A DNA stretch of 64,000 nt from Takakia lepidozioides. Taxonomy: Eukaryota; Plantae; Bryophyta. Position 1 is the first letter of the stretch. The number at the start of each line of letters is the position of its first letter. Below are positions 2,073 to 61,403 of this stretch, piece by piece. The notes beneath the pieces were generated by a model. That model ran no database searches, was not told the origin of the DNA, and worked only from the letters and a program-made list of their open reading frames with translations. The stretch is taken from assembly GCA_030704615.1 (NCBI GenBank), contig CM060734.1:59334001-59398000 (forward strand). The letters run 5' to 3'. The position numbers and the translations under genes are program-made.

Positions 2073-2109
2073 CTCCTCGTCCGTCTCACCATGCCACCGA
2101 GCTCCAGTG

Positions 2110-7699: not shown

Positions 7700-8429
7700 C
7701 CGGTCATGAACATGTCCCTAACCCCCTCTCCACAAGGTAACCGGGTAGAGAACCTGTTGCGGCTTATGGTTTGGAATACTAAGTTCCTAACATAGCCTAC
7801 ACCTGTACCTGCATCCACCGCAAGCACTCCTATGGTTGGCTGGTCATCACCTCCAACCTCACCACAGGAGAAACAATGATGGTCTGGCTGGTCATCACCC
7901 CAGCCTCACCATCGACAGCATGCTCTAGGACTGGCCGGTGATCAAATCCGGACCAATCACCTATAAAAACAAGCGCCCACACAAAACTAGCATGGCGCAC
8001 AGTCAAGCATGCAGGTATGGAGGGGATCCAAACACAAGAAATCAGAACGACAACTCCCCCACACCAAAAACAACTCCACGGTGTTGCTCCTGCAAGGACA
8101 CCCCAGCCCAAACCCGGACTGACTCTTGCCTCCACCTACGGAAAGGTCTTGGCCTAATGAGAGGGTGGAAACTACGAGGAAGAGAAGCTAAAGCAATGCC
8201 TAACCCCAGCATGCCCTCATCCCAACACTCTTCCTCTCCTCTCTTCCCTCACTTGCATGACCATGGGAATATCATGAAGATACTCCTCAAACCGCCCTCC
8301 ACGAGCTTCAAAATTCGGCCTTCAAGACCACATGCCAGTCCTTAGGCAGTCCACCAGTGCCTCCACGAGTCAGCACAGGCCGTCCACAGGTCAACACGGG
8401 CCACCACAGACCAGCACAGGCCCACACAG

Positions 8430-20974: not shown

Positions 20975-21062
20975 CGCGCACACTCAGTCAATCTCGCTCG
21001 CACTTTCACTAAGGTTCTTTCCGTAATTTTGTGGACCAGAGGGATCGTAAGGGAGGGCACGA

Positions 21063-22007
21063 ATGGCAGAATCCGTTCAACAAACCAACACTGACAGGGG
21101 TATTGGGCAACCTTCTGCAACAATTGCTGCAGATAGTGGATACCCGGGCACCACGCAGCCTGAGACTGGTAATGGGGCAGGCGGACCTGGAGCTGCACCT
21201 GCAGACAGTACGGTACTAGACAACGCGAAGGGGACGCTGGGAGACTTGTTCGGAGGTCAGAAGCGGCAACCCAACAATACTTCAGGTCCAACTGGGCCGG
21301 TCACAGAGGGCGCTGCTGGCACGAAAGTGGGTTTCCTGGATAAAATGAAAGAGAAGCTCGGAAAGGGCCATCGCGGAACTGGGGCTGGAAACCCGAGTGA
21401 GACCAGCCCATACGGTACTGGGGCTGGAACCGACTCATATGGAACTGTAACATCTCCGACAGGAGTTGAATCTGATGTTGGAGATCGCTCTGAGGCCAGT
21501 CCATATGGGGTTGGCGCTGGGACTCCTTCTGATGGATCTCGGACCGACTCCTACGGAGCTGGAGCTGGCCCAACGGAGGCTGGGTATGATGCCCGAAATG
21601 AAAGCAGCCCATATGGAAGAGGTGCTGGACTCAAAGATCCCAACACGGGACCTGCAAATTCAGGGGTAGCTGATGGCGCCCCTGCAGGCACAGGCGAAGG
21701 GGTCATTGGGAAGGCTGAACAACAGCGCACTGGTCATGAAGAGGGGTATGGAGCCGGCACAGGAGCAGTAACTTCAGGCATGAACCCAAATACTCAGGGG
21801 TTGCCTGATGCCTGGCCTCGGCCTACCAGCCCACAAGGGGCTACAAATGCACATGGGGGAGCTACCCTCACAGATGCCCAGGGAAATGTGCAGGAAGGGC
21901 CCAGGATTGACACTGTGAAGAAAGAGGGCTTCATGACCAAGATGATGGACAAACTCCACCTCCACCACAGTCCTAAGGGACAAGCGACCGGAGGCTCCGC
22001 AGCCTGA
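21063..22007 (+). CDS. Dehydrin (LEA group 2), 314 aa, intronless
   Basis: K-segments KVGFLDKMKEKLG and KKEGFMTKMMDKLH; Gly/Thr-rich and hydrophilic with repeated SPYG/DSYG. Confidence 0.88.
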   Translation: MAESVQQTNTDRGIGQPSATIAADSGYPGTTQPETGNGAGGPGAAPADSTVLDNAKGTLGDLFGGQKRQPNNTSGPTGPVTEGAAGTKVGFLDKMKEKLGKGHRGTGAGNPSETSPYGTGAGTDSYGTVTSPTGVESDVGDRSEASPYGVGAGTPSDGSRTDSYGAGAGPTEAGYDARNESSPYGRGAGLKDPNTGPANSGVADGAPAGTGEGVIGKAEQQRTGHEEGYGAGTGAVTSGMNPNTQGLPDAWPRPTSPQGATNAHGGATLTDAQGNVQEGPRIDTVKKEGFMTKMMDKLHLHHSPKGQATGGSAA

Positions 22008-29200: not shown

Positions 29201-29294
29201 GATCTTGCTCACTTGGGGGTAGTTTGCTACTCAATAGTCTTAATATCTAGCTACTCGCATCAAGTTTGGGGTGCGTAGTCTTATATTGGTGGCG

Positions 29295-29880
29295 ATGGCA
29301 ATCACTATGCATCGTATGATACAAGGTTTACTGTTGTTTTTGGTGATCTTTGCTTTTGCTTTCAATTCGGTCAAGTCAGTTTGTCCATCGGGTGCCGTGT
29401 TCATGTTCGGAGACTCACTTTCCGATACAGGAAATGATCAAGCAGCATGTCCATCAAACCAACAAGTACACTTGAATAGACCTTACGGAGAAACATTTTT
29501 TGGACATCCAGCAGGCCGCTTTTCGAATGGGCATATTGTGATTGATTTCGTCACTCACGCCTTTGGACTGCCCTTCCTCACCACAATTCAAGCATATGTA
29601 ACGAACCGTACCAACTCCAATTTTCGACACGAGATTAATTTTGCTTACGTTGGAGCTACTGCACGAAACGATGACTATTTGGTTCTATATAATCTCGAGC
29701 TTCAAGTTGAACAATTTTTGGATTTCAAAACCAATGCAAAATCAAAACTGGCAAGAGAAGCGATACCCACTTCATTATGACAATGGATTATACATTATAC
29801 ATGCTAGGGGCAACGATTTCTCATATCAGTATCTCTGACACATGGGACCTACAGAGGTCATGAAACATATTGTGTCTCAA
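29295..29880 (+). pseudogene. GDSL esterase/lipase, intronless, frameshifted and 3'-truncated
   Basis: Signal peptide, FGDSLSDTGN, PYGETFF, GRFSNG, NFAYVGA. Block III (RGNDF) is in another frame, followed by a stop; no DxxH block found. Confidence 0.85.
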
Positions 29881-31955: not shown

Positions 31956-33230
31956 ACCCACAAGCCGCTTGGAATGTATTCTATTTCGGAAATCCATATT
32001 TTTCTGGATTCTTCAGAATGTCCACATTGATGTCATAATATTGACCGAAATGAATAGAAATTCCCTGAAGCCGTTGCTGGAGATCTTGAATCATCCTTTT
32101 CAAGCCCTCGTTATAGGCTAAAACAACCTCATTAACGGGAATCAAACACACATGCTCATCTCCTGAAACCTCAGGAGTGCCCCAATTTGAGAGGAAAATA
32201 ACCTTTGACAGGAACGGTTAATGTAGATGAAATAATATCTAGTCCGTACGTTATATAAATTCTTTGTAGTCGCTGAAAACTATTTGTGGGTATCACAGAC
32301 CAGTCCAAATCTCCAGACATCAGACCATTCTCCGACCTTCGGTCATCGCTAGAATGTCACCTTTTGGTGAAAATGTATTAGGGTTTAGCCAAAACCTGTC
32401 GACGTGGCCTTCTGTCTTGCTGAGAAACAAAAACTTGGCACTAGCTGGCATCCTAATTAGTGTCAGGTATAGAGGTGGGGTGCTTGCTCTGTAAATATGG
32501 GTTGTTATAGTCAGCTGCTTGCAGCAATGGGGATCTATGCATCGCTGCTTAGAGGCAGGGATAGCTGAAGGAGTGTGTGGGTGCAGGTCAATCCCAGAGC
32601 ACAAGATTTCAAGCACGAGAGTAGGAGCTAGCCACTGTGGATATCAAGCCACTAGAAACATGTGTGGGTGGATGTTCAATGGGAGAAGCTGGAAGCAGCT
32701 AAGTGAATGTCTGTGCCGGGTGCTGGTGGGTTGTGATCATTGGGGCACTTACAGTACGACCACCCCTCCTCTTTAAGTGATGCAGACCTGATGGACTTAT
32801 GATCTTTCTCTGTTCATTGCACGAGGTGTCTCTGTTAAGTAATTTCATAATATTTTTTTTCAGTAGAGATAGGGAGCCACCCTTCGCATGTTGAAAGGAG
32901 CAGAGTACTCGATTTTGCTATGAGGGTCTAGTTAGATATCTCCTTTTAGCCAGACATGGAGCAGAAAGTTGTGTGTTGGCGGCACATAGGAGATTACACA
33001 CCAGGGGAATCTGCACAGATCTTATGTTGTAGAGGGATGTTATTTATTTGGTCTTCCTGATTCAATTTCGAGTGTTTAAAGTTTTGTTGCAATTGTTGTG
33101 AGTGTAAAGATGAACGCTAACAGTCTTGAAGTGGTTCTCGGTATGCATACAAAAATGATGTTGCAGTTGGTTGTTGCAAGCATGCATAATGTGATTTGTA
33201 CAACTTGGTCAGAGTATTGAGTCATGCAGG

Positions 33231-35135
33231 ATGGCAGGGTTGAATCAGGCACAGTTCTTTGAAACCACCACCATGATTGAAGGAGGACCAAGAGGAGGAA
33301 TCAGCAAGAACTCTGCTGAAAGTTGGGGGTATGTGAGGACGCTGTGTAAGGCGGGACACCTGAAAGAGGCGCTGCACATTTTGAACCAAAGAGACATTCC
33401 CGCAGATTCAAGTACTTATGTCTGCCTCTTGCAGCAGGTCACCAAGTTGAAAGGCATACGAGAGGGAAAGCAAGTGCACACCCACATTATCCGTAGTGGA
33501 TTCAAGCCAAACATCTTTCTATTCAACACCCTTGTCAACATGTATGCCAAGTGCGGAAGCATGGTGGATGCTCGCCGAGTGTTTGACAAAATGAAAGAAC
33601 GAGATGTATTTACGTGGAATATAATGATAGCAGGCCATGCCAAGCATGGGGGGGGTTGGGAGGCTTTGGAGATTTATGAGCAAATGCAACAGGAAGGGAT
33701 GATGCCTGACAAGGTCACGTTCATTTGCGTTCTCAATGCGTGTGCCAGTCTGGCTGCCCTGGAAAGAGGCAAGCAGATACATGCTGACATCATGAAAGCT
33801 GGAAGTGCACCACATATCATTGTGGATACTGCCCTCATTGCTATGTATGCCAAATGTGGGGGCTTAAAGGATGCACGGAGAGTGTTTGACACTATGGCGC
33901 AGCGGAATGTGGTCTCCTGGAATGCAATGATTGCAGGATATGCTCAGAATCGGCGTGATAGGGATGCTCTTAGAATCTATTACCAAATGATGCAGGAAGG
34001 CGCAACAGCCGACAAGGTCACATACATTTGTGTTCTCAACGTGTGTGCCAGTCTGGAAATCCTGGAAAAGGGCATAGAGGTCCATGCTGCCATTGGCAAA
34101 GCCGGAATTGCACCAGACATTATTCTGGAGACTGCCCTTGTCGACATGTATGCCAAATGTGGGAGTATGAAGTATGCATGTCAAGTGTTTGACAATATGG
34201 CTAAACGTAATGTGGTGTCATGGACTGCAATGATCACAGGATATGCCAAATGCGGAAGCATCAGGGATGCCCGTCGAGTATTCAACATGATGGCTGAAAG
34301 AAATGTGGTATCTTGGAATGCAATGATTGCAGGATATGCACAGCACGGTTATGGTAGGGAGGCCTTACAATTATTTGGGCAAATGCAACAGGAGGGCCTG
34401 AAGCCGAATGTGATCTCATGGAGCACAATGATCTCAGGATATGCTCAGCATGGATGTGGTAAGGAGGCTTTGGAGATGTATGAGCAAATGATACAGGAAG
34501 GGGTGACACCAAACAATGTCACGTTCATTTCCATTCTCAATGCGTGTGCCAGCCTGGCGGCCCTGGAAAAGGGCAAAGAAATCCATGCTGACATTGTGAA
34601 AGCTAGAATTGTGCAAGATATTCATCTGGAGAATACCCTTGTCAACATGTATGCCAAATGTGGGAGTGTAAAGGATGCCCATCAAGTGTTCAACAATATG
34701 CTGGAGCGAGATGTGGTCTCATGGAGCGCCATGATCGCAGGATATGGGCAGCATGGATTTGGCAGGGACGCCCTCCAACTATTTGAACAAATGCAACAGG
34801 AAGGGGTGCAGCCGAACCTTATTACCTTTACATGTGTCCTTTCTGCATGTAGCCGTGTGGGCCTATTGGATGAAGGCCATCACTACTTTGATTCCATGAG
34901 TCGAGATCATGGCCTCACTTCTAGCGCAGAGCATTTTAGCTGTATGGTGGACCTTCTTGGTCGTGCCGGGCAATTGAATGAGGCAGAGGATCTTATCAAC
35001 AAAATGCCAACTAAACCAGGTGCTACAGTCTGGGGGGCATTGCTTAGTGCCTGCAGAAATCATGGCAATGTGGAAGTAGCAGAACGTGCAGCTAAATGTC
35101 TTCTCAACTGGAAGCCACAGCACACTGCAACTTAA
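33231..35135 (+). CDS. PLS-class pentatricopeptide repeat protein, truncated in the E domain
   Basis: Repeated LVNMYAKCG...A..VFD.M..RNVVSWNAMIAGYAQ P-L-S triplets and E1 VWGALLSAC. TAA falls where T-Y-VVLSNIY is expected; no DYW domain. Confidence 0.92.
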   Translation: MAGLNQAQFFETTTMIEGGPRGGISKNSAESWGYVRTLCKAGHLKEALHILNQRDIPADSSTYVCLLQQVTKLKGIREGKQVHTHIIRSGFKPNIFLFNTLVNMYAKCGSMVDARRVFDKMKERDVFTWNIMIAGHAKHGGGWEALEIYEQMQQEGMMPDKVTFICVLNACASLAALERGKQIHADIMKAGSAPHIIVDTALIAMYAKCGGLKDARRVFDTMAQRNVVSWNAMIAGYAQNRRDRDALRIYYQMMQEGATADKVTYICVLNVCASLEILEKGIEVHAAIGKAGIAPDIILETALVDMYAKCGSMKYACQVFDNMAKRNVVSWTAMITGYAKCGSIRDARRVFNMMAERNVVSWNAMIAGYAQHGYGREALQLFGQMQQEGLKPNVISWSTMISGYAQHGCGKEALEMYEQMIQEGVTPNNVTFISILNACASLAALEKGKEIHADIVKARIVQDIHLENTLVNMYAKCGSVKDAHQVFNNMLERDVVSWSAMIAGYGQHGFGRDALQLFEQMQQEGVQPNLITFTCVLSACSRVGLLDEGHHYFDSMSRDHGLTSSAEHFSCMVDLLGRAGQLNEAEDLINKMPTKPGATVWGALLSACRNHGNVEVAERAAKCLLNWKPQHTAT

Positions 35136-37307: not shown

Positions 37308-38100
37308 GAATAAGGGAAGAGGGAGAAGACATTGTACGCTTGTGTGGTGCACGCATCTGTCTGAACGTTTCTAGTCACTCATCTTCCTGTTCGTGAAGGC
37401 TTGTGTTTGAACTTCATCGGGATTCAGCTTCCCATTGCAGTGTGTTTCGGGGAGATTCTCAGCGCTGTCTAGCAACAGCATTCTGTGTTGGCTGCACGTA
37501 TTGGTGGGGGTTCTGAGGCTCCTCATTCCGTATTCATATCTGAAGAGTGAGATTTGCTCTCCCTTCTTTGTCATCTTTGGAAAGGCTTCGAATTTTTCGT
37601 TTTCGTGCTATGATCTGTCATTCGTTATCGGTGTTGAGTCTAGCACTGTACCACTGTCTTTGAGACAGTTTCTAGGAATTTCTGTCCATTCTCTTGTTCT
37701 TCCCCTTCTGTGTTTCTCTCTCCTCGGGCCTGAGTACCATCTTTGTTACATGGTCACTCTACTGCTACGTAGTTAATGTCCCCACTCTTGTGGGTGCCTG
37801 TCTGAGCTTTGCCAGCGGCCCATGAAGGCCTTATTGGCGAGGCCTCTCCCTTATAGAATTGCAAAAGTCGAAGCTTCAGTGATGGTTCCATTGTCTTGGA
37901 CCTAGAGTGGACCCGTGCATATATTCTTGTTCCCCTCTTTCTCGTGATACATATATATAAAGTTAGTGTTAACCTTGTCTGGCAAAAGCATTAGAGCTCG
38001 ATCTCTGTCGTCTGTATACGAATAATAAGAGTTTGAGGTTTTGTTGCCACAGGCTGCGACACCTGACGTAACCAGGTATCTAGCAAGCATTATACCTGAG

Positions 38101-39471
38101 ATGGCAGAGCAATTCGAACAGGGAAACTTCCCCGGAGAAAATCCAGGGGCGCAGACGAACCCCCCGGAATCTCAATATGGAGGTACTGGCCAAGACTCTA
38201 GCTACGGCCAGTCTCAGACAGGTTTCCAGGACGCTCAGGGTGGAGGTCCTGCTCAAGACTCTAGCTACGACCAGTCTACAGCAACTGACAAATCCTTTGA
38301 GGCACCACAGACGGGTTCTGGTGATGGCCAGCAGACATCTGTAGGTGGTGACGATGCTGAATTTTCTGAAGCTCCTACGGAGCTTGATCAAACTCCGGTC
38401 TCAGGTGGTCAAACTGGGGTGACGGATCCAACTGACGTGAACACTGGTGTTGGGCCCACGGGCACAGACACTGTCGCCCCACGTGATTTCTCATCATACA
38501 ATGCTCACCAGGATGAGTTTGGCCAGACCGAACCAGACAACACGCCCAGCTCAGACACTGGATATGGTGCAGATCAGTCGGAAGACCAGCCTCCTCACCA
38601 CACGCTTCACTCCGCTAATGAGCCTCTCCCAACCCCAACTGATTCCTCCTATGCCGGAGACAGTGGCTATGGTGCTTCAACCGATAATGGGACGGGAACA
38701 GGTGCGGAGGAGACTGGACCATCACCACCAGCTGGGGATTCTACTTACGGTAGTGATGCTGGCTTTCCAGCCGATTCCCAGCAGACAAACACTGGTGTTC
38801 CTAGTAATTCAACTGAAACACAGTCGTACGACCAGCCCCAGCAGACTCAATCAACTGGCACAGATTACCAACCCACTAACACCGACAGCGCTGGGGGATA
38901 TGAGCAAATTGGCACTGGGGCAGATTCTTACCAGCCGACTGAAACCCCTGCTCCCAATGGTACCAACTATGATACCCCTGCAGATACTTCGCCAGGAGCC
39001 ACAGACACAAGTAAGATTTCACATTCCATTCTACCTAATTACATGCTTCTGGAGTCTATTTTCAAATGTGCACATTCAAAGTGTCAGAATAATTTCATGC
39101 TCATTTCATGATGATCAAGTCTACTAGATCGGATTCGGGTGTAAGGTTCATAATGTTCTAAGTCCCCGTCACTGACACCCAGCAGCTTGTCAATTGAGAA
39201 TTCTAAACTCTTAATTAGAGATTTTCCTTCATTTGCTATTATAGTTGTACTAACAGAACAAAATCCTATATACTTGCTGCGTGTCTTTACAGATGAGGCG
39301 CCCCCCAAGAAGGAAGGGTTCCTCTCCAAGCTCAAGGACCATCTGCCTGGTCATCACTCCAAATCTTCACCAGATTCGGCAACGGTTGATGATACCAGTG
39401 CACCCCCGAAGAAGCTTGGTGTTATCTCCAAAATAAAAGACAAATTGTCACCCAGCAGCGACAATGAATAG
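38101..39471 (+). CDS. Acidic dehydrin-like LEA protein, 2 coding exons (38101-39010, 39293-39471), ~362 aa
   Basis: GT..AG intron 39011-39292 keeps the frame. C-terminal K-segments KKEGFLSKLKDHLPG and KKLGVISKIKDKLS; repeated DSSYG. Confidence 0.88.
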
Positions 39472-46354: not shown

Positions 46355-47328
46355 AGTCCTCGAGGTCGGTGGTTGGGTCATCACACATGGCGTTTGTGGT
46401 TTATACTCGGGACTGTTTTTGTCGCCGTCGAAGTGCATGGAACAGTGATATCAGAGAATCCTTCCTCTCTCCTGCACATGAATAATACCCGATAACTTAT
46501 ATGCAAATCCACGCGAGACTGTGGGACCACATGGCAGGGATCGAGAAAAGGAAGTCCACACTTGTCATCGTCCTTATCATCTGCTTCGTGCCAGGGTGGT
46601 AGCACGTTGAATTTGGAACACTTTGTACAAGACGAATGCGGGAGAATTGAACAAGAGCATCTTGGAAGTGGGTTTGAAAAGCTGAAGCTGTATTTTGGAC
46701 TTTGTGTTTGGTGAATGATGAGCGATAACGCGGCAAAACTGTAAGCAGCCCCTCTTTGTGAGATAATATAGATAGACAGGTTTGACTTGACGGATGCGTA
46801 TCAGCTGCCACTGAGGCCAATTGATATCGGAGTCTAGAAACTCTGAATTCGTCTGGCATATTAAAGGTATAAGATCTTACTCGGTGAAACCGAGGCGATT
46901 GTGGTGAACTTCAGTCTTGATGAAGACGACATTTGCTTGCATTTATAATTTTTTCACGTTCTTGTGGAGGAAAACAGGTTGGGTTCGCAAAAAGAGGTGA
47001 AGCCCTAGTGTGTGTAAGAGTAACATTGAAGGTGATGGTTGAATTCCAGCAAGTTTTAAGGCAATGATCAAACTGGGAGCATGAGGAGTCTCAAGATCAG
47101 GCACCGATTCCGCGGGCATGGTACATCGAGTTGTGGCATTCTCTGCAGCTATCAACAGGTTGAGTTAGAGATGAATGTGCGCTAGTGAAAGATTGACATC
47201 CCGTTCCCAATCGTTCTTCTCATTTTGTAATCTGGTACCTAGTTAGCCCTTTGTTCCATCGTCGACAGAGTTGTGCCATAAGAAGCCAAGAAATGCGGCC
47301 CCGCTTGCCTTGGTAGGCCATTGAGAAC

Positions 47329-50300
47329 ATGGCGGAAAATGTCTTTACTTTATGCAAAGAGACTATAGATTTAGCCCAGTACCTCGTGGCAACTGAGAAA
47401 GATTTGCAGATCAACAAGCAGCAGTGTAAGCTTCTGGCAAAGAAGCTCTCAGGAACCCACGAAACATTAGACACGATCCGAGAAATCTTATTTGAAGAAG
47501 CGTGCCGCGGGCAATTTCGTGGTGCAAAACACTGGGAGCTGGTCATCAAGGAGCTCTATCGTGTACTGAAGGCTGCCGAGGCACTGATCAAGGATTGTTG
47601 CTGTAATAATCGGTGGCTGAAGGTAGCGATCAGGCAAGGCGACAAGAAGCAAGATTTTGCGGAATTGCTCTATGACGTAGATTGGTGCACTTCTGTTCTG
47701 TGTAGCAGTTTTCTCCAGCCAACCAGTCAAGAGACAGGCTACTTTGACGCAGGAGCATGCGAGGGTAACCTCGGTATCACAGAGTATTATGCTCTGGAGG
47801 CAGCAGCAAAGGATGACCAAGACAGCCTCAAGGCCTCTCTAAAGCACTTGAAGGGCGATCATGTTTGCATGGAGGGCTGCAAGCACCTCAACCAAACTGA
47901 GCAGTGCCTTGCAGCGCAGCTGTTGGGGAGATTGCAAGCCCCAGTCTTGCCAATTAATAGCAGCGAAATTGGTACCTCGCCGCTCATTTTGTGGGCGAAT
48001 CCTGGAGAGCTCACTGATGGAATTAAGTTAGGAGAAGGTTCGACGGTGAAGGTGTATGAAACTATGTGGGGAGGAGAAAAGTACGCAAAGAAAAAAAGCT
48101 CGGATAGCTCTTTGTTCAAGCAAGAGGTGGCTACTCTGGCAGGGCTTGATCATCCCCACATTATGCGGCTAGTTTGCTGCTCTCAAAGCAAGCGAGACAT
48201 CCTCCTGATGGAATTGATGGCCACGGACCTCCATGCCCTCTTGCACGCCAGACCCCGCCCGTTTCCGAATCTTGAAGCCGTTGACCTCATGCTGCAAATC
48301 GCTGAGGGGATAAAATATTTGCACGCCAGAAGCATCGCCCACCGTAATATAAAATCTTTGAACATTCTTGTCAGATGTGCAAATCTTCCAGCTTGTCTAG
48401 GAGAAGACGCCCGCGTGTTCGCGAAGATAGGTGGATTTGGCTTGTCGAGAGTCACACATTCGAAAACTAGATACTCAGCGCAAACACACTATATAGGTAC
48501 CAGACAGTGGATGGCACCGGAGGTTTTCAGTATGGAGGATAACGAAGATCTTCCTACCAGGTTGCAACCTCTGAAAGCAGATGTTTACAGTTTTGCGATT
48601 GTCTGTGCCGAGATATTGACAGGAGAGGAGCCATTTGGGGGGAATACATATGGGCTTGGGAGGAGGGTGAGGAGGGGGGAGAGGCCAAAGTTGTCGGAGA
48701 GTTGCCCAAACAGGTTGGCTTACTTGATTAAAAAATGTTGGGATGGTGACCACCTCCGGAGACCAGATTTCTCAGAGATTTGCAGAGAGCTAAGATATAT
48801 CAAAGGCCTCCTTCTGAAAGGTTAGTGACGCCCATGTTGTGAACATTGCTTTCAGCACCAGATATGATACTACGCAAGCTTTCTTGATGGACAGTTCCGT
48901 CACAATAGAGTCCCGAGATGATAACATCAGTGAAAATAGTAAGGGAATCTGTGAAACACAAAACAATCCTCTCGACCTCATCTTCTTCAACATACGATTT
49001 TACATTAGTTGTGACTCACAGAAATGCAATTCGAGGAAGAGATTATTGTGGAATTTGAAGGCTTTGATAATTGTTCATGAGAACCTTATCACTTCTAGGT
49101 CAAAATCTTTGCACGAGGTAACCTCTTCCTTCCGCCATGCTCTAGAAGTGATGGAATGATCAACCTTAAAGGAGTGACAATCGAGACCTTGATTGTCTAT
49201 CGTGAACATAGGGCTATTGATTAAATTGCTAAAGTGAGTCGCCCCTCTGATACAAATTCTGGATTCTACAGATGATGAAGTGCAGCTGGAGAAACTGGAT
49301 GCAGATGCTTTTCAAAACAAAGCAATTCAAGTAGGTGAAGACTATGTACATTCATTTCCTTTTTCGGACTCCCCACATAGAAGCATAGACAGCAGACGGG
49401 AGTTATATTCATGGAACTTTGTCTTGAGTATATTTGCATTGTGCACTTAAGATAAATGGCCAGATAAAATGGCCAGGTTAGAAGATATGTCTGGAATTTT
49501 TCTGATGCATTTCAATTGCATTTTCAGTTTTCCCACTTGCTGCACCTTCTCAACTTCATCATTGTTCCCGCTTTTGTTGTGCATATGTATCATCATATCA
49601 CTGAGTTCTGTATATGTGTTTATTAACCTCCCTCCTTGCGTATAGTGCCTCTGCACCCAAGGAAAATCTGGATATCTTCAATCTAGATCAAATTTGAAGA
49701 AAAGTTATGGATTGGTACAACTGTGTTGTATGCACTTTACCTCTGCGTTTTACAATTCGATAGAATCATTATCACAATGGAAATGTTTCGAGGATATCAA
49801 ACAGAAATTTCTATGCACCAAACCCCCCAAAAGAAAAACACACAAGCTTTGAAGTATAACATTGATATCTGGGTTCTGGCGTTGTGTGTTGTATATCATC
49901 AGGTACAAGGACCTTGGGGAGGTATAGGTGGAAGTCCTTTCTTTGATGGTATCACTACATCCATCAGAGGGTTTCAGCTCAAATTTGACAAGCCCCCACA
50001 GGCTCCCTGCATATGGTATCTTGAGGTGCAGTATGAGGTCAATGGAGTATCGTTCCAGTCATATCATGGTCTATCCAACTATGGGGCAAAATCTACTGAG
50101 GTTTGACTTTAACTCCTCCCTTCAATTTTCTAACAAGGTGTCTAACAAGCATGCTAAGCTACCATTCACCTTCCTCATTGACAAAAACCAACTGCCTTAT
50201 GTGACATTGTTCAGTTCCATCTCATTTTTCAACTCTCATCTGGTTTTGGAAGTTATTGCTTATTACTGTGTTTATTAATTCATTCTCTTTTCTTTATTAT

Positions 50301-50832
50301 ACAAGTAGGTGAGTTACATCAGAGTTTCCACATGTTTTCAGTGTGTCTGTTTGCAAATTTTAGCAACATTTTGTTATAGCCTATGCAGGTAAGGCATGAA
50401 CAAAACCTGTAATTGTATGTGTAAAGGGTGTTATTTGTCTACATGTTCATATAGTGATTCAATCATCAGATAGATTCTTTGTCTGCACCATTTAATTGTG
50501 GAAAGAGCACTTGTCAAGCCTGATATCTTCGTGCTTGAGTCTAGCTGACAGACTGCGTTTCATTGATTTCTGTCCAGATTTCATTCTCCTCCGAGGAATT
50601 CCTCGAGCAAATTGAAGGTTCATTTGGCTTTCAACCTGTTTATGTGGGATCCGACAAAGTTACAGGCATCACTTCTCTGACATTTCGCACCAATCTAAAC
50701 ACCTATGGACCATTTGGTGGTGAAGGGGATACCCAATTCAAGACAAATCCAGGAAGGGTAGTGGGTTTGTTTGGGAGATGTGGCCTGAGTCTTGATCAAC
50801 TTGGAGCATTTATCGTCCAAGATGAGACTTGA
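47329..50832 (+). CDS. MLKL/HeLo-like N-terminus + TKL-type pseudokinase + jacalin lectin; exons 47329-48820, 49272-49330, 49903-50100, 50578-50832 (~667 aa)
   Basis: All introns are GT-AG and phase-consistent. N-terminus NKQQCKLL...ELYRVLKAAEALIKDC...WL; kinase has HRN and GFG in place of HRD and DFG; jacalin GPWGG, ITSLTFRTN, YGPFG, GLFGRCGLSLDQLG. Confidence 0.88.
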
Positions 50833-52818
50833 GCAAAATATTGATACAAAATGTTCTTTTGGAGGTCCTTTTTTTTTTTTCCAGAACAGGGGACGAGGTC
50901 TTCAAATCCTGAGAGAGAATCTGGTGCCTGCACCCCAGGACCTCCAGCTTTTTCAACCGATGGTGCTAGGATTCCCCTGATGATCTTTGTTTCCATGGAA
51001 GTTAGGCCTCATAGCTCAAGAGCTAAATCTGGTGCGAAACAACAGACACTAACAGCGCTTGTAGCTGACTCACTGTGAGTCACAAAAGTAAGAATCAAGG
51101 AAACATCACTAGTCAAGACGAGCGGATATTGAAGAGCTGTAGTGGCAAGTCCGTCGGTAGAGAAGAGGAGATAGTGCTCACACACACACTTATCTCTCTC
51201 CTTTCCCATGCCCTTCCTGCCCAGACATCAGTAAGATACCGACAAATCAGTGTGATAATTAATTATAGTTAATAGGTTCACTGCTACCTAATATAGTAGA
51301 GCTAGTTTGCAGGCAGTTTAAGAGTAGGCTCTTCCCAAGATGGTGCCACATCATAGGACCTCTCCCATGCTGCCAAACCATGCAATGCCCAGTTTTGCCA
51401 GAGTCATTTCTTCTCATGTTACTGCCCATCACGCACAATTTCTTCTCTCGTATGGCAGTGGTGGAGCTGTACGCTGCTGTTGAAAGTCTGCTTGAAAGCA
51501 AAGGGATCCCAGTTGAGGTCTTCGGCCACGAAGTCTTCAGCCATAGTGTGCACCACTCTAGCCCTCCTTGAAGACTATAAACACATGAATGCAAACAAAT
51601 ATGATCTGTGTAAATCCTGTTATTAGAGCCTCTTCAGATGTACTTTTTTGTTCTCTCTGCAGACTTGTGATGGTCCTGCACTTGTTTATCCGGTACTCCT
51701 CGGACACTCTCAAGTGTGTGGAAGTACACTGTGAATGATGTCCTTGCACCAATGAAGATCAACAATCAAGACAAATGAAAACCTCCTTATTGTTTGCGTG
51801 TGCAACCAGTGCTCACTACAGTAAACTACAAGTAACTCATCTTTCAGTGTCCAATAGAACGAGCTGTAGGCTATAGCTCACATGTTGCCATGCAAAACTC
51901 CAACTGCTCCGGTTCTCCATTCCAACGTCTTAGAACAATTGCCGTCATTGTAGTTGAGGTACCATACTGGAAATGCAATCCTGATAACGATTCCTCTTTC
52001 CTTACAAAGTAGGCCACCATTTCTATGACATCCTCAACGTAGCAGCTCCCCAGTCAAGAATCTCTATTACAACCCCAAGTGTAAGATGAAACCATCGGGC
52101 AGAGAGACAGGCACTGAGAAATGATAAGACAACCCCAATGTGTGCCGGTCACCCATCTTCTGATGCATAAGGGATTACACAAGTTTGAAAGATGGTTCAC
52201 CCAGTTGTTTCAACATTGTGTCTTCCTTTAATGGCAGTGCTTTTGAGCCAGACTACATTGTAATCAGAAGAGTAGTTCCTAAATTTTACTTGCACTACTA
52301 ACCACCTACTTGGAGATCCAAGAATTTGGTTTCCATGTAGAGAAAACTGGCTTTACGTACATTAGTCAATAGTTATTCAGTACATCAGAATACTGGCACA
52401 GTAACACTAGTCTTACAAGCCAGACTGACATGCCCACTAAACCTCCTCTTACCACCAAATGCTCCTCGACACTAAGAACCAAATTGTGTCCATACTCTCA
52501 AGACTTCCACTTCACCATAGAGTCGACAGACACATCCCCGCAGCCTGCGCAGGCTGGGTTAGTGAGGCCTGCAAACAAGTTCGATTGTCTGATCGAGCAG
52601 TAGGTGAGACAACCAAATCGAGCTATGTGCCCTTAGGTGGTAGAGAACTCAACTGGAAGAACTCCCAAGGACGATGGCGCGCCTACAATCAAAACCCATC
52701 CAGACGTGAAAAACTTTGCATCAAGCGGATGCCTTACTTCATAATATCAACATGACAACTACTCTAGTGAGGAAAACTGCCACTAGAGCCAGTGCCAAAA
52801 GAAGTGGAGTAGAGTAAC

Positions 52819-53539
52819 TCACAGGTTTAAATCCTTCCGGGGAGCTTTTACTTTCAAGTAATTTTTTTTTATGGTGATACTTTCATGATCTGCTATCTCA
52901 TCACCATCAAAATTTGTAATAGGATCTGAATGCAAATATAAAAAATACTGGATGTATGTGTCATGTCTGCTTCTGCGGACAGAAAAGTGTCCACCATCTT
53001 CTATGGGTTTTGTTGTCAAGATTGTATGCACGCCAGCTAAGAACTGTTTCAAAACGATAGGATGACCAGTCTTGTTGATAATGTCTGTTGAGACCACATT
53101 CCCCTGGAATACTCGACGGAGCCTGTAATCAAAGTCCATCCATGTAAACATGTTAGCATAAAGAGGATCACTTGTTTCCATAAAATATCAGCACCACAAC
53201 CAATCACACCAGCAAAACACCTACGCTAGTGCCAACAACAGTGGTGAATAGAGCAACTTACAAACTTGTATCCTCTGGACGTCGAACATGTATTTTCGAG
53301 TAGGTTTTTTTGATGATGATACTTTCATTTTTGGATATGTCATCACCATCAACTTCCACAGCAAGATCTGACTTGACATATAGACTGTACTTGCGGTCCC
53401 TGTCATATGCATTGTGGCGGATGACATAGGTCATGTCATCTTCCAGTGTGGTCAAAGTTATGTACACGCCATCTGAGGATTCTTTCAAATCGATAGGAAG
53501 GCCAGTCCTGTTGAGAATGTTTGTGGTGATCCAGTCCAT
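52819..53539 (-). CDS. Unknown small protein with two tandem ~90-aa beta-rich domains; probable intron 53261-53123; may continue past a GTGAGT donor at 52822
   Basis: TNILNRTGLPIDLK...DGDDISKNESIIIKK versus TDIINKTGHPIVLK...DGDEIADHESITIKK. GTAAGT donor, CTAAC branch site and CAG acceptor join the two in frame. Confidence 0.6.
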
Positions 53540-53821
53540 ACCTAAATATTCCTGCTCTTCAGCACAACGAAAGTTCTTGGGACATCCTGAGAAATTGGAA
53601 CTCAACAATTAATATTATGGGCCAAACAAATGTTTGACAAGATGCATCTTGTCAAAATGTGAAAAGCAATGATTTTCAATATAGAAAAGCACTTGGGCAG
53701 ATAAATGGTGTGCATATTGTCAAAATGTGAAAACCAAGGCTTGTCAGTATAAAAAGCACCTACACATAGAAGAGTGAGCTGGATTTTTCCGAGGTACCTA
53801 TCAAGCCAAGGGGTGTTGCGC

Positions 53822-55174
53822 TCATCCGCTATGGCACAATAATCTCCTGCAATCTAGAAGCACGATTGTAGAGAACACAAGAAGGGCCACTATCGAAAGT
53901 CCGATTGCAAAGCAGCCCTTGAAACCAAGGCGTGCGTTCACCACTTCAGGTTCATCCTTTGCATGCACAGCGAAATCAAACTGATTTCCGTAACTCTTCA
54001 GCGCATCAATCCGTTTCTTCAAAACCTGAAAGACCGACCATACTCCTTTCCTTTGTCATTAGAAGTCGTAGGCACATGTAGACTTGATAAGACCTATTTT
54101 CAGATTGGAGATTTATCATGAGGTGCCTGCCCCCAGAATTCACCACTTCAACTATGAGAAGTTAGTGAAGTTTCGCATGACATACAGTGGTAGCATTGGG
54201 AAAGGGATAACTTGCCAATGTGAGCTGCACATTTCATGTAGTCCTGAATAAAAATGTCACCACACAACTAGCCAATGCAAACAAATGACCTCTTTTCTAG
54301 AAAATCTGTTATCTCAAATAATAATAAAAGCCAAGGCGTTGGACACTACATGAGCTCTACAATCAGATTTCATGCTCAAGAGTTAGAGGTTGGTCAAAAA
54401 ACCGGTTTCGATTATATTTCTCCGAGACAACCTAGGACCATTTACATAGCTTTAACGGATGTTAACCAGGAAATCAACGATTTTGAACACAAGGGAGAGA
54501 GAGTGCACCTTAGAAGCTTTTCGCTCACTCTTAATGCCGTTCCTCCATCTGATGTGATCCAAGATCTTTAGGACGACGCCACCGATGGTCACAATGGACG
54601 CTAAGAGAGAAAGTGAGAAGGGACCCCACCAGTTAGTGCATAGAAGATTGTTTGCTTGGGCGAGAGCTGTGAGCACAACACCTTGAAACACAGTATAGAA
54701 CCCGATCAACTGATATATTTCGGTCTTCACATTGTTACTAAGAGCCTCTTTGCTCTCTATCCTGGAGCGACACTCCTGAAACCTAGTTTCCCATTCGTTC
54801 AATATCAATTTGAGCTCAGGGTTGGCATCAATTTCCCTCAGAACTTTAGCTTGTATTGCACTGGCTGGAAGATCCTTCTTTCTAGTTCTAAGAGCTTGAC
54901 ACACCGTGTCAGCTTCGACAAAGTCTGATTCCTCTATTTCGATGCAAATGTCAACCTTAGAGTTGTTAGACACTACACTTACAGGATAGCCTTTCAAAGA
55001 CTCAAAATCCAAAACTCTTGGGAGCTCCACATGAACGTCTAGCCTCTCCTTGTTCACAGAATTCTGCTCTACCCTCTTAAGAATGCCTTCAAAACCCTGG
55101 AAACGCACAATTGGTAACCGGACAGACGAAGCAGATTCCCTATTGATGTTAGCGCCTTCAACCGTGCTGGACAT
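53822..55174 (-). CDS. Unknown membrane protein (coiled coil + 2 TM + coiled coil + 1 TM); exons 55174-54509 and 54025-53822 (~289 aa)
   Basis: EIYQLIGFYTVFQGVVLTAL, WWGPFSLSLLASIVTIGGVVL, FAIGLSIVALLVFSTIVLL; phase-0 GT-AG intron. Confidence 0.75.
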
Positions 55175-56018
55175 GCTCAATACCTGAGCGCAATCACCGG
55201 CCACTGCCCCACAATCCTCCCTCTTGGCGTGCAAATCTGTAAGCTCCCTGCCCAGCTTTCTCTAGCTCTCTACTCTTGTGGGTCACTCAAAAGGCAGCAG
55301 CACCCGTGTGACACACAAGATACTGTCGGTAATGAGCCCGATGATGTCACCTGAAGCATTATGCTTTTTACTTGCTGTTTTTACTTTGTTAGCTCTGGCT
55401 CTGGTAAAATAGTACGGTCGACCGTACCGGGTCGCTGCATTTATTTTTTTATTTTTTTCGTTCTTCAAAAATCGCCAGAGGCCGCTGGCGTTGAGGGGTT
55501 GAAATCGTCTCACACGGGAAGTTCCGACAGGAGGACGTACCTAACTTAACACCGCTCCCAGGACCCGACACACCCGTGACCCATGCCTATTCTGGGACCA
55601 CGAAAGGACTCGTTGGTATTCTACGCTCACACACGGCAGCTGACTCGGCCCTTCCACTGTATTCGCCCTCCTTCACGGAAGGGCCTCGCACCTGCCCCGT
55701 CCCCAAGTCCCCGCCCCATGGAACGGGAGTACGTGGCATGGAACCCCTGGTCAACCGCGCTTCTCGAACCACGTGGCCCTTGAGATTCGTGGAACAATAT
55801 TGTCCCTGGGATGAGATGTTATCTAGGGTTGATGTGCACCCAGATAATCAGAGGGTGGAAGCACATGAGCAGATTTCTATGCACTGGAAAGGCGCTGCCC
55901 TCCAACTTGCCGGGTGTGCCCTCCGGCCCACCCTTGACCCTTTGAGACCGCTATCTATTTTGGCGGGCCACCCCAAAAATTGTGCATACCTAAACACCTA
56001 CCTAGTACCGATGATCCG

Positions 56019-56042
56019 GGTCGCCTCGTCATTTAGGGTTAA
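56019..56042. mobile_element. Orphan terminus related to the piggyBac-like element
   Basis: ggtcgcctcgtcatttaggg-TTAA versus ggtcgcctcgtccattagggg-TTAA at 23290-23314. The other end was not found. Confidence 0.5.
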
Positions 56043-56387
56043 ACCGCGGAAAGTCCTCGAGCGGGAAATTCTGGTACATACAGAAGCCACCTTCTAAGCT
56101 TTCAGGGACTTCCATGGTCGCGTTTCATCCATTACTTTCCGGTGAAGACCTGAAGTAATTTCTTCCTCGTACGTCTATTGCAGTGGGAAGGATCGAGAGC
56201 ATTGATGCTGCCCCACACATTTGCACATGACTATTAGACTTAGAAGCAGAATCATGGAAATGTTGTGAAACGCACGGCCCTCGATCTTATATTATACTCT
56301 ACCAACGGAGCCCGGCTCTGCCACAGCGAAGCAGGCGACCAGATCGATGCGCTGCTACAGAGCCCTCGTGCCAGTCGGTGGCTTCGA

Positions 56388-56805: not shown

Positions 56806-56970
56806 TGGGAAGAACCCGTCTCTTTGAGTTGTGGCATTCGCAGCTATCAGCACCGTGAATTGGCGGTTCCCAACTCTTCTTCTCAGATTGTAATTATCTC
56901 GTAGCCATTTGTTCTATCGCAGCATGCCTTCTAGGTAGTTATCGGCTCAACGCACTTGAGAACAGAATCC

Positions 56971-59900
56971 ATGGCGGAAAATGTTCTGACTTTATGCAAA
57001 GAGACTATAGATTCAGCCCAGTACCTTACGTCAACCGAGAAAGATTTGCAGATCAACAAGCAACAGTGTAAGTTTCTGGCAAAGAGACTATCGGGAGTCC
57101 AAGCAACATTAGACAAGATCCGGGAACTCTTATCTGATGAAGAAGCAAGTGCAAATAGTTTTCACGATGCAAATGACTGGGAGCAGGCCATGAAAGAGCT
57201 TTGTCGCATACTAAAGGCTGCCGAGGCACTGATCAAGGATTGCTGCTGCAATGGTCGGTGGCTGGATGCAGCGATTAGGTATGGTGACAAGAAGCAAGAT
57301 TTTGCGGAATTGCTACACGGTGTAGACTGGTGTACTTCAATTCTGTGCGGCATTTTTTTCAAGCGGACCTCTAAAGAGACGCGCTACTACATTGATGCAC
57401 GAGGGTGCGAAGGGCAACTCAGCATCACTGATTTCTTCACTCTGGAGGCAGCGGCAAAGGACGACCAAGACAGCCTCAATGCCTCCTTGAAGCGCCTGAG
57501 GGCCGATCATGTTTGCGTGGGGAGCTGCAAGCAACTCAACCAAACTGAGCAATGTCTTGCAATGCAGTTGTTGGGGAGATTGCAATTAGCCCAAGCCTTG
57601 CCACTCAACCGAAGGGACGTGGATACATCTCCGCTCATTTTGTGGGCGAACGCCGAAGAGCTTGATAATGGAATTAAGTTAGGAGAAGGTTCGATGGGGA
57701 AGGTGTATGAAACTGTGTGGCGAGGAGAAAAGTACGCGAAGAAGAAATTCATAGGCACAAAGAGCTCAATGTTCAAGGAAGAGGTGGCTGCTCTAGCAGG
57801 ACTCGATCATCCCCACATTATGCGGCTAGTTTGCTGCTCTCAAGGCAAGCGCGACACCCTCCTGATGGAATTGATGGACAAGGACCTCCATGCCCTCTTG
57901 CATGAAAAATCTACGCCATTTTCGAACCTTCGAGCAGTTGACCTCATGCTGCAAATTGCCGAGGGGATGAAATATTTGCACGCTAGAAGCATTGCTCACC
58001 GTGATCTCAAGTCTCTGAACATTCTGGTCAGATCCATAGATCTTCCAGCTTGTCTAGGAGAAGACAGGCACCTGTACGCAAAGGTAGGTGATTTCGGATT
58101 GTCAAAGATCAAGAATGAGAGTACCAGGTACTCAAATCAAACACTGGATGTAGGTACCAGACAATGGAAGGCGCCGGAGGTTTTCAGTGTGGAGGATGAC
58201 TTAGAAAATCATCCTACCAGGTTTTACCCTCTGAAAACAGATGTTTATAGTTTTGGGATTGTATGTGCTGAGATACTGACAGGAGAGGAGCCATTTGCGA
58301 ACGACTTATATGGAATTCGGAGGAGGGTGAAGGGGGGTGAGAGGCCAAAGCTGCCGGAGAGTTGTCCAGCCAGGTTAGCTTTCTTGATTAAAAACTGTTG
58401 GGATGGCGACCCTCTCCGGAGACCTGATTTCTTACAGATTTGCAGAAAGCTGAGATACATCAAAGAACTCCTTCTGAGAGGTTAGTGACTGCCATCTTCA
58501 GTTCCTGTGAGCATTGCTTTCAGAACTAGATAAGTACTAGCACTATACAAGCTTGCTTAACAAATAGTTCAGTTTAACCTAGAGTCCCATGATATTAACA
58601 TCAGTGAAAATGTCGAGGGCATCTTATATGTATGAGATTGTCCTCTCAACAGTGCTCTTCTTCATACAATCTTAAAGAGGGATGGACAGAGATGTAATGA
58701 AGAGGAGGTTAATGGCCACAAAATCCTGAGGTTTTGGTTCCTCTTCTTGTGTTGCAGTCAGTTATGGTTGAACATTGTCCCCACAGAGAGAAGACGTTGG
58801 CCATGGCCAGTGTAACTAAGTGCCACTTAGCCTTTCAGTTACTGCCCACTTCCGGGGGTTGGCCTTGTCCGTAGAAAATAGTCCAGTCATGAGCTTGCAC
58901 AAAGTTTTCACTATTATCTAGATTTGAAATGAGTACACTAAACCCAAATTAGTGCAACCGTTCTAAATATGTAAGTGTTCTAGGTCAACATCTTGCACCA
59001 GAGTCTTTTTCCTACACCATGCTGTAGGAATGAATGATCAAATGGCAACGGAGACCTTGATCTTCCGTATTTGGACAAACTGTTATTGATGAAACTGACT
59101 TCCTCATGTCCTTCTAATGTCTATGAATACTTGAATATGCAGATGATAAAGTGCAGCTGGAGAAATTGGACGACCATGCTTTTCAAAACAAAGCAGTTCA
59201 GGTTCATAATTACTACGAACATTCTTTGAGTATATTTGCATTGTGTAGTAGTTTGATGAAATCCTTACTTATTGTTTTTTGCGATTTCAGAGTTTAGAGA
59301 GTATGTCAGGACCATATTCTGTTGGGGCATGTCACTTGATTGCCCATTCATTCCACTTGCATTTTATTGTCATTCCTGCTTTTGACGAGGTGCATGCGCA
59401 GCTTCCTCATATCACCAAGTTCTGTATATTGTGGCATTATTTCTTGTCCAAGTCGCTTTGGTGTTTAGTGTCTCTGACTTAGTCATGTAAGAAACTTACA
59501 ATCTGGATTTTGTCAACATAGAGAAAGAAAATAATAGTAACTACACTTTAGAGAACGCTAACATCAGGGTTGTACATTGGTTTATTTTATATCATCAGGT
59601 ACAAGGTCCTTGGGGAGGTGCAGGTGGAAGTGCTTTCTATGATGGTATTGCTACATCCATCAGAGGGTTTGCGCTCAAATTTGACCACTACCCAAGCTCT
59701 CCTTGCATATGGTCTATCGTAGTCACGTACGATGTCAATGGAACAATATTCCAAGAAGGTCATGGTGACCAAAACTATGGCAGCGAATTTGCTGAGGTTT
59801 GATTCTTACCTCCTCACTTCAATTGGAAGGTCTTCCCTAAGCATTCACCTTTCTCATTGACCAAAACCCACTACTCAGCATATCATTTTTCTCCTTTCAT

Positions 59901-61403
59901 TTGATATTTGTAAGTCATTATTTTCTTTTTTCTTTCTATTTTTTAATAAAGGAAACCTGGGAACGAGAGCCCACAATTCAGGCCCTTTTTGAGGAGGGGG
60001 AAAAATTAAACCCCTTTCATCAATGGGCCTTGAGACATACAGGACGAACAACATCCAGACAGATCGCCACGAACAATCCACACAGGGCAAGGGAGGGCGT
60101 GTTTGAACCCTGAACAACCAGTGTGACACACTTTTTTCTTTTTAAAAAAAAATTAAGACAAAGGGGACAGAGGCCCTTTTAATCAAATTAATAAGTAAAG
60201 AAGAATACAGGAGGAAAAAATAACTTCCAGGTGGGCCGTGAAGGCATATCACATGGGGAACTACCCAGACCCTAAGAGATAAGGGGGAACAGGGGGACTG
60301 TGGGAAGAAGAGAGCCTGACCCGGCTGGCAAGGAACGAAGAGAACTCAGAGCCGGATGGGGCGCCAGGAACTAATGAAAACAGGCATCAGTAAAGCTATG
60401 CTGAGCCTTAATCTTAAAAAACCCGATGCCAGCCCTGGCAAGCAGAAAATCACATAGCCTGAAGACCAAGAATGGCTCAAGAGCTGATCTAAACATTGCC
60501 ATTAAAGCTGAGGTGAGCCTTAGCCTTTGGGATTCGGAGCTTGCGATGCTTCCAATTCACCTCCGGTTCCTCAGCATCAGCGGGGGACTTGCCAGCAGTG
60601 AGGGAGGCCATGATGCCAGATAATGGTTTTGGCCAAAGTGCGGGTGCAGAGAATGTTATTCTTGGCCCAGGAGAGGTCGAAATTCGAGCTAAGTTGCTGT
60701 CGAAGACTTTCTCCACACTACGCACTTACTTACCAGCTGAGCTCGATGTGCTTCTTTTCTCTTTTAGAAAAGGAAACTTGGGATGGACAACTTTACAAAA
60801 GAGGGGAAAAGTAACCCCTTTCACCTTAGCCATGAAGCACACACGAGTCATTATTTGTGTACTAATTGATTTTTCTCTTTGTTACAATATTCACAGTTTG
60901 CATATGTCTTGGAGATGTTAGGTGGAAAATATGCGAGGGTATGTACTGATACAAGGCACGAAAAATATCTCTAACCGTATCTACTACGAAGGATGTAGCA
61001 TCTTTTCACGTGCATAATTCTAATCCCCACACCCCCTTTCAAACCTGGGCCCCTTATTATGGGATCATCTTGCATAATAAAGTATTTGCTTGTATCATTT
61101 TATTGTTTGAGTCTAGATTACACACTGATTTTATTGATTTGTATCCAGATTATTTTCTCCCCCATTGAGTTCATTGAGCGAATCGAAGGTTCATTTGGCA
61201 TTCAACCTGTTACTGTTGGACCCGACAGCGTTACAGGTCTTACTTCTCTGACATTTTTCACCAACTTAGACACCTATGGACCATATGGCAATGAAGGGCA
61301 TTCGAATTTCAAAACAGATACTGGAAGGGTGGTGGGTTTGTTTGGGAGATGTGGCATGACTATCGATCAACTTGGAGCATTTATTGTCCAAGATGAAATT
61401 TGA
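56971..61403 (+). CDS. MLKL/HeLo-like N-terminus + intact TKL-type kinase + jacalin lectin; exons 56971-58480, 59143-59201, 59599-59796, 61149-61403 (~673 aa)
   Basis: Exons 2-4 are the same sizes as in the paralogue. GEGSMGKV, AKK, HRDLKSLN, DFG, APE, DVYSFG; jacalin GPWGGAGG...GLFGRCGMTIDQLG. Confidence 0.9.

Follow-up and report, generated by a model that had tools for sequence, protein, structure and literature searches.

The closest described systems to the locus analysed here are the seed-plant pseudokinases AtMLKL1-3, which the available portion of bioRxiv 10.1101/681015 describes as auto-repressed tetramers that show effects of activation-loop phosphomimics, with an architecture convergent with that of animal MLKL. 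In wheat, the accessible text of bioRxiv 10.64898/2026.08.07.743466 reports that catalytic-site changes in R3AK alter activation of its bundle, and that a catalytic-site mutant is auto-active through helix 1. Fusions of kinase and jacalin domains have been catalogued in Sphagnum fallax and Physcomitrella (PMC6362431, the available part of Supplementary Table 3), and NLRtracker picks up proteins of the MLKL class outside the flowering plants, as reported in PMC11218826; the family described here may already be among those in its supplement. Plant MLKL pseudokinases, MLKL-kinases, tandem kinase-pseudokinases, and moss kinase/jacalin architectures are all in print, and a literature search over result listings and abstract openings returned nothing on lycophyte bundle-kinase-jacalin genes, nor on any AtMLKL-type family that keeps its catalytic residues. 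The locus bears on how a bundle-fused kinase switches to an MLKL-type pseudokinase and on which kinase acts as activator of plant MLKLs: intact and motif-dead versions lie side by side at 72% identity, such that residue and domain swaps can test the transition directly.

The window (the whole stretch analysed, 64,000 nucleotides) contains two tandem four-exon genes, both on the + strand and ~6 kb apart, as revealed by a six-frame motif scan and a self-BLAST of the window, in which 47328-48950 matched 56970-58624 at 80% identity alongside three shorter exon matches. Copy 1 encodes 667 aa (2004 nt) and copy 2 encodes 673 aa (2022 nt); both nucleotide lengths are divisible by three, neither model has an internal stop, and the pairwise dS is ~0.40 (NG86). 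The initial annotation had described copy 1 as free of stops and frameshifts with its splice sites kept, and this is upheld by the 2004-nt frame and by GT..AG at 3/3 introns, a count that copy 2 shares. The features are given below, with support that includes contigs and joints from read runs X1 (DNA) and X5 and X6 (probable RNA, judged from intron skipping).

47329..48820, + strand: copy 1 exon 1, with four-helix bundle (aa 2-126), brace (~aa 141-216) and pseudokinase (aa 229-495); DUF1221, PK_Tyr_Ser-Thr, model pLDDT 90.1
48031..48054, + strand: copy 1 glycine-rich loop GEGSTVKV, with Val in place of the third Gly (G240V); translation, homologue alignment
48091..48093, + strand: copy 1 beta3 lysine K255, kept; invariant alignment column
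48124..48126, + strand: copy 1 alphaC glutamate E266, kept; homologue alignment
48340..48348, + strand: copy 1 catalytic loop HRN (D340N), CAC CGT AAT; translation, 3/3 covering runs
48433..48441, + strand: copy 1 GFG replacing DFG (D369G, codon GGA); translation, with absence of the Asp in the runs deduced from contig counts
48442..48522, + strand: copy 1 activation segment, in which K376T, N377H and S379K depart from the family pattern and Ser/Thr/Tyr remain; alignment
49272..49330, + strand: copy 1 exon 2, linker; model, joints in X5 and X6
49903..50100, + strand: copy 1 exon 3, N-terminal half of jacalin; Pfam, read joints
50578..50832, + strand: copy 1 exon 4, C-terminal half of jacalin and stop; PF01419 (E 3e-16), read joints
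56971..58480, + strand: copy 2 exon 1, with four-helix bundle, brace and canonical kinase; model, Pfam
57115, + strand: site of a 1-base deletion in copy 2 (X1 and X6 contigs; absent from X5 and the window), codon 49, after which the frame would end following codon 73
57682-57705, 57997-58005 and 58090-58098, + strand: copy 2 motifs GEGSMGKV, HRD and DFG (GAT); translation
59143..59201, + strand: copy 2 exon 2; model, read joints
59599..59796, + strand: copy 2 exon 3, jacalin; Pfam, read joints
61149..61403, + strand: copy 2 exon 4, jacalin and stop; Pfam, read joints

Both genes are spliced. Among the 12 listed runs, X5 and X6, which come from different studies, contain about half of the copy 1 words. 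X5 skips all six predicted introns of the two copies at GT..AG, and X6 has four intron joints among those listed (two in copy 1), with skipping of copy 1 intron 1 deduced from the contig table. No intron skipping was seen in the DNA run X1, and depth over the intergenic stretch 55317-56318 is zero in X5 and X6; contig depth is unusable for ranking expression. The possibility raised in the initial annotation that copy 1 is unexpressed is contradicted by its splicing in the probable RNA from both studies. The intron-1 donor of each copy directly precedes in-frame stops (48821-48826 and 58481-58486), so that a retained intron would yield a bundle-kinase protein lacking the jacalin domain, and many of the 500-560 aa relatives in databases are probably unspliced gene calls. 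Both copies also start with MAEN and an amphipathic helix (47329-47388 in copy 1), which bears a loose likeness to the MAEPL/MADA executor motifs presented in the available text of PMC11218826.

A further spliced gene lies between the copies on the minus strand (50850-55310), with introns 52683-52822, 53123-53261, 53587-53797, and 54026-54508 skipped in X5 and X6. Arranged head-to-head with copy 2, its 3′ end meets the 3′ end of copy 1. Its exon 1 codes for an uncharacterised plant protein that contains a hydrophobic stretch of two helices and has an unnamed Atlas lead of 0.90 and no Pfam match. Exons 3 and 4 each contain a DUF7748, in a frame different from the spliced exon 1 frame, which ends at a stop in exon 2. 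A single fused tandem-kinase gene was considered for the locus and rejected, as there are two genes with their own starts and stops and this third gene between them. Elsewhere in the window, a Gypsy-like retroelement region (494-7717) includes an ORF (3537-4919) with a C-5 cytosine DNA methylase domain (PF00145, E 6e-13) that adjoins RT/RNase H and a PHD-like C-terminus. A PPR gene (33195-35135), a GDSL lipase exon (29244-29780), and two low-complexity Gly/Thr/Asp-rich ORFs with no Pfam match (21051-22007 and 38029-39111) have no evident link to the kinase genes.

The central observation concerns the catalytic motifs. GEGSTVKV, HRN, and GFG in copy 1, and GEGSMGKV, HRD, and DFG in copy 2, are where the initial annotation had placed them, and the GGA codon at 48433 is indeed two changes from the GAT of copy 2. 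Copy 1 retains K255, E266, the catalytic-loop Lys and Asn, APE, and DVYSF. Under a sequence definition of pseudokinases based on the beta3 Lys, the HRD Asp, and the DFG Asp, it has lost two of the three and kept the Lys, such that its designation as a pseudokinase holds (HRN and GFG) and it is predicted from sequence to be catalytically inactive. Some HRN pseudokinases, including JAK2 JH2 and HER3, still bind ATP and Mg according to the available part of PMC13519141. The A at 48346 that creates HRN occurs in the copy-1 contig of 3/3 covering runs (depth X1 63.7, X5 53.1, X6 28.7), which rules out sequencing error as its origin, and every paralogue contig reads G (HRD) at this position. The DFG codon is <30 nt from the end of the contig-compared stretch and is not tabulated there. 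The X1 copy-1 contig has one difference in the whole compared stretch, and the contig counts for X6, and probably for X5, leave one unplaced difference in the DFG end zone; these are too few to restore the DFG Asp, firmly so for X1 and X6 and probably so for X5. Assembly chimerism was rejected on the read-contig evidence.

The domain content of both copies consists of DUF1221 above its cut-off (32.4 bits vs 25 in copy 1), a weak MLKL_N match (16.6 bits, below the cut-off of 27, and thus not the MLKL_NTD-type bundle of Pm13 and R3AK), a Tyr/Ser/Thr kinase, and a C-terminal jacalin domain in exons 3-4 (PF01419) that was missing from the initial description. The AlphaFold model of copy 1 exon 1 (pLDDT 90.1, pTM 0.92) has helices at 2-21, 30-59, 70-89, and 107-126 in the bundle and at 141-216 in the brace. 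Its top structural match is AtMLKL3 (6KA4; Z 28.9, rmsd 3.5, 432 residues) across model residues 3-497, with continuous alignment to 6LBA and 6KA4 through the brace, and the other structural matches listed cover the kinase only. AtMLKL2 and AtMLKL3 are also the best solved-structure relatives by sequence: a 73-sequence profile matches AtMLKL2 (E 7e-88, residues 24-523) and AtMLKL3 (1e-81) over bundle, brace, and kinase, and its next single-kinase match is at 2e-56. The earlier description of copy 1 as MLKL-like is well founded on this profile and model alignment. Atlas leads for the N-terminal part (MCAfunc, PUB10_N) were all below 0.9. GPWGG and G-x4-D, which we take to be the jacalin sugar-site Gly loop and Asp (predicted binding), are kept in both copies, and the predicted sugar loop differs between them (GLSLD vs GMTID). 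By analogy, the jacalin domain is likely a sensor.

The nearest proteins are from Diphasiastrum complanatum (67-68%), followed by moss-like sequences at ~45%, a ranking that on its own suggests a clubmoss, and copy 1 nests among intact lycophyte kinases in the tree. The branching of copy 1, copy 2, and Diphasiastrum is weak (support 83/55; informative sites 8 vs 7 vs 2), so the age of the duplication is approximate. Both Asp are kept in 116/120 close homologues; the exceptions are Sphagnum fallax P0059 (HLN/GFG), one HRG/DFG sequence, and two with a gap at DFG. Among 143 new distant representatives, 16 of the 90 scorable bundle-kinase units are without an Asp, mostly one only, and an earlier impression that double losses outnumber single ones (2/5 cases in the close set) was dropped because single losses dominate in this distant set. 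The survey points to an AtMLKL-type architecture that is widespread among mosses and clubmosses, in most cases with its catalytic residues intact and frequently accompanied by a jacalin tail or another kinase, where the cited papers, in the parts available, describe it only as seed-plant pseudokinases. The placement of copy 1 among intact lycophyte kinases points to a loss of the catalytic residues separate from that in the seed-plant MLKL clade.

The initial annotation had also noted that kinase/pseudokinase pairing recurs, and within this family it does so as fusions: among 22 bundle proteins with more than one kinase, an intact kinase is combined with an Asp-lacking one in 13, every kinase is intact in 8, and every kinase lacks an Asp in 1, a count from a search that favours multi-kinase proteins, with only the two Asp scored, one unit truncated, and one unit differing from its cluster mate. 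Several of these proteins are Ceratodon or Sphagnum gene models common to strains or species. Fused units lack an Asp more often (15/46) than single units do (10/69; p 0.036). P0215 carries an HRD/DFG unit and an HRN/GFG unit fused within a 1056-aa frame that occurs on 7 contigs; the long branch (2.3) and open frame of the latter unit indicate that such units can last. The Asn+Gly state has three origins (copy 1, S. fallax P0059, and the second unit of P0215), with a single Asn+Gly clade rejected (p-AU 1e-5; 40-row kinase tree, Asp columns unmasked). D-to-N and D-to-G are single transitions, and mutation bias may therefore explain part of the convergence. A moss group common to Ceratodon strains and Sphagnum species (P0213, P0222, P0236, P0266) consists of bundle-pseudokinase-kinase tandem proteins with HGE/HGQ in the first unit and an intact second. 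Tandem clusters are usual in the family (Sphagnum, Diphasiastrum), and the frame is broken in 3/7 moss-like metagenome loci. L003, L004, and L007 have frame breaks or deletions, with a truncated neighbour in L004 and an HRH catalytic loop in L003. The family turns over fast, in the manner of birth-and-death evolution. Conservation of HRN/GFG in relatives had been proposed as a check; no copy-1 orthologue was found by protein, short-protein (47 matches), jacalin-half (1 match), or distant-homologue searches, and nothing aligned to the copy 1 locus at 80% likeness in X8, another organism from the study of X6.

Several measures bear on whether copy 1 is under constraint. The omega of copy 1 vs copy 2 is 0.45 (CI 0.35-0.58; NG86, pairwise, mixing both branches). 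The per-domain comparison proposed in the initial annotation separates the domains without separating the copies, as these are pairwise values with both branches mixed: the N-terminal part is slowest (0.34), followed by the kinase (0.44) and the jacalin domain (0.74, CI 0.45-1.25). Four of 58 kinase columns conserved at ≥95% have changed in copy 1 (both Asp, K376T, and P456S) and none in copy 2, and all 11 such N-terminal columns are kept in copy 1. The chance that both Asp fall among the four is 0.0036 if picks are random, uncorrected for the selection of the case as striking. At sites where copy 2 and the homologue P0003 agree, copy 1 has changed 2/72 non-catalytic conserved vs 27/99 variable columns (p 9e-6), and its changes are enriched at catalytic and activation sites (p 0.014-0.12 by threshold). 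Polarised against distant homologues, kinase changes number 10 in copy 1 vs 2 in copy 2 (p 0.04) and N-terminal changes 6 vs 5 (kinase/N-terminal contrast p 0.19); 6 of the 10 lie in the glycine loop, HRD, DFG, or activation loop, and the non-catalytic changes of copy 1 include P456S, P475H, and S313P. Unique residues number 87 in copy 1 vs 43 in copy 2, a gap partly inflated by changes shared between copy 2 and Diphasiastrum.

The initial annotation had treated neutral evolution as fatal to its reading, and here the evidence divides. With the first Asp loss granted, the probability under full neutrality that the frame and splice sites stay intact and the second Asp is lost is ≤0.005, with copy 2 standing in for the ancestor, 0.05-0.12 indels per substitution, and no correction for the locus having been picked as striking; non-coding stretches suggest a rate of ~0.2. 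Coding indels between the copies are in frame in 5/5 cases vs 1/12 in alignable non-coding stretches. Among the indel rows listed for three samples, none falls in the copy 1 coding sequence. Together with the sparing of conserved non-catalytic columns, a frame that has outlasted neutral expectation fits poorly with wholesale neutral decay. On the other side, the placed polymorphisms in copy 1 exon 1 are five replacements (V117I, S166C, I214V, L273I, and I336T, four of them conservative, aliphatic or S/C) and one silent change (P205P), a 5:1 ratio that is neutral and does not indicate selection (n=6, with a few more differences unplaced). On balance copy 1 has probably been retained in some functional role.

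The initial annotation cast copy 2 as the active partner of copy 1, and this part of its proposal is not supported. Read contigs show at least two other HRD paralogue types in this organism, one with DLG, and at least one further HRD paralogue is present in the probable RNA runs. The 1-base deletion at 57115 occurs in the sole contig covering the site in X1 (48.6/48.6) and X6 (118/118) and not in X5; no compensating row is among those listed though weaker rows are, and contigs drop minor alleles. It may mark a null haplotype of copy 2, the copy with an intact kinase; if it is real, a null is segregating in the proposed partner, while copy 1 is without a coding indel among the rows listed. The deletion is linked with an 11-base deletion upstream, at 56782. 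Complex prediction for the two copies, run twice without alignments, scored 0.00 and speaks neither way. A dedicated pair, in which copy 2 is the specific kinase and activator of copy 1 on the model of RIPK3 and MLKL, would fit the adjacency of the copies, their splicing in the same two runs, and the union of HRD/DFG and HRN/GFG units in P0215. But tandem arrays are ordinary in the family and tandem duplication alone predicts adjacency, and with the further HRD paralogues and the copy 2 deletion this becomes the least likely reading, one that we regard as distinctly improbable. Copy 1 may instead be activated by any active paralogue, or act in hetero-oligomers.

Copy 1 is an intact, spliced, MLKL-like bundle/kinase/jacalin duplicate without both Asp, and we place at about an even chance that it persists as a non-catalytic switch over its bundle. 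The duplication would roughly coincide with the divergence from the Diphasiastrum lineage, and because copy 2 and the further HRD paralogues made copy 1 redundant, constraint would have been released on catalysis only, with the fold, the ATP-site Lys/Glu, the bundle, and the lectin site staying under purifying selection. The pseudokinase and brace may bury the bundle in an auto-repressed oligomer, as in the AtMLKLs, until it is triggered, either by a glycan or effector that the jacalin domain senses or by activation-loop phosphorylation by any active family member; once released, the bundle would form oligomers at membranes as part of immune signalling. That the four-helix bundle is intact favours a retained executor capacity. 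Copy 1 might alternatively be a retained decoy or brake that binds an effector or glycan, or tunes active paralogues by co-assembly, and does not itself execute. Its jacalin domain is the fastest evolving and has altered sugar-loop residues, fused relatives frequently mix intact and Asp-lacking kinases and carry the excess of Asp loss, and the available text of PMC6170490 proposes a decoy role for tandem kinase-pseudokinases. A pure decoy has no need of a bundle as conserved as that of copy 2, though oligomer contacts could explain this, and a mimic of an active kinase should keep the activation-loop pattern from which copy 1 has drifted; we consider this role doubtful.

Slow decay of a redundant duplicate, which has yet to gain a stop or frameshift and is transcribed only through a surviving promoter, is similarly unlikely in our estimation. 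It draws on the tandem clusters and broken metagenome loci (one with HRH), on the distant units without an Asp, and on the replacement-rich polymorphism, faster rate, and negative orthologue search for copy 1. Against it stand the neutral calculation, the sparing of conserved non-catalytic sites, the lack of coding indels among the rows listed for three samples, and the DFG codon itself, which is two changes from Asp, as an unselected 2-kb frame would not survive that long. If copy 1 is merely decaying, the locus amounts to a commonplace tandem duplication in a kinase family with rapid turnover. Beyond the locus, a broader and speculative scenario that we hold with little confidence is that mosses and clubmosses represent the catalytically active stock from which MLKL pseudokinases arise repeatedly by the same Asp-to-Asn and Asp-to-Gly steps, after which the dead copy and an active sister (fused in some mosses, adjacent here) would form a RIPK3/MLKL-like module with a lectin sensor; the 72%-identical copies would then be a before-and-after pair.

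Comparison with the known systems places copy 1 between several of them. In animals, the accessible part of PMC12463104 gives mouse and human MLKL the bundle-brace-pseudokinase order of copy 1 without a lectin domain, and the mouse motifs VTIK/HRN/GFE parallel the kept Lys, HRN, and GFG of copy 1. The animal activator RIPK3 is an unrelated gene, whereas the candidate activators of copy 1 are its paralogues. Wheat Pm13 and R3AK, as far as described in the available portions of PMC10951266, PMC11297308, and bioRxiv 10.64898/2026.08.07.743466, join a bundle to a kinase that, like that of copy 2, has catalytic residues, but they are Poaceae fusions of separate origin, with the Pm13 kinase belonging to RLK/Pelle. 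R3AK pairs with an NLR, and a four-pattern scan found no NB-ARC motif within the 64-kb window. According to the R3AK preprint, none of its monocot MLKLs of the DUF1221 clade keeps the catalytic residues, whereas most non-seed relatives here do. WTK1/Yr15 and RPG1 (PMC6170490, in part) likewise combine kinase and pseudokinase by duplication and are immunity-linked, but as one polypeptide, like relatives such as P0215, where this locus has two genes, each with its own bundle and lectin. The available part of the PMC6362431 table names no N-terminal bundle, MLKL link, or pseudokinase state for the kinase/jacalin fusions and lists none for Selaginella. The nearest counterparts are AtMLKL1-3 (DUF1221 clade; 6LBA, 6KA4), which in the sections available of bioRxiv 10.1101/681015 share the bundle-brace-pseudokinase order and end in a serine-rich tail, in place of which copy 1 has a spliced jacalin domain after the kinase. 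A kinase without catalytic residues, typical of the AtMLKLs, is found in copy 1 and not in copy 2 or the 116/120 homologues. AtMLKL2/3 also read GFG at the DFG site in the alignments, but the AtMLKL catalytic loops are HGD/HGE without a canonical beta3 motif, whereas copy 1 has HRN and keeps the Lys and Glu. As its nearest relatives are catalytically intact, the pseudokinase state of copy 1 probably has a separate and recent origin relative to the AtMLKLs; copy 1 is an AtMLKL-like architecture, without the serine tail, that probably arose separately.
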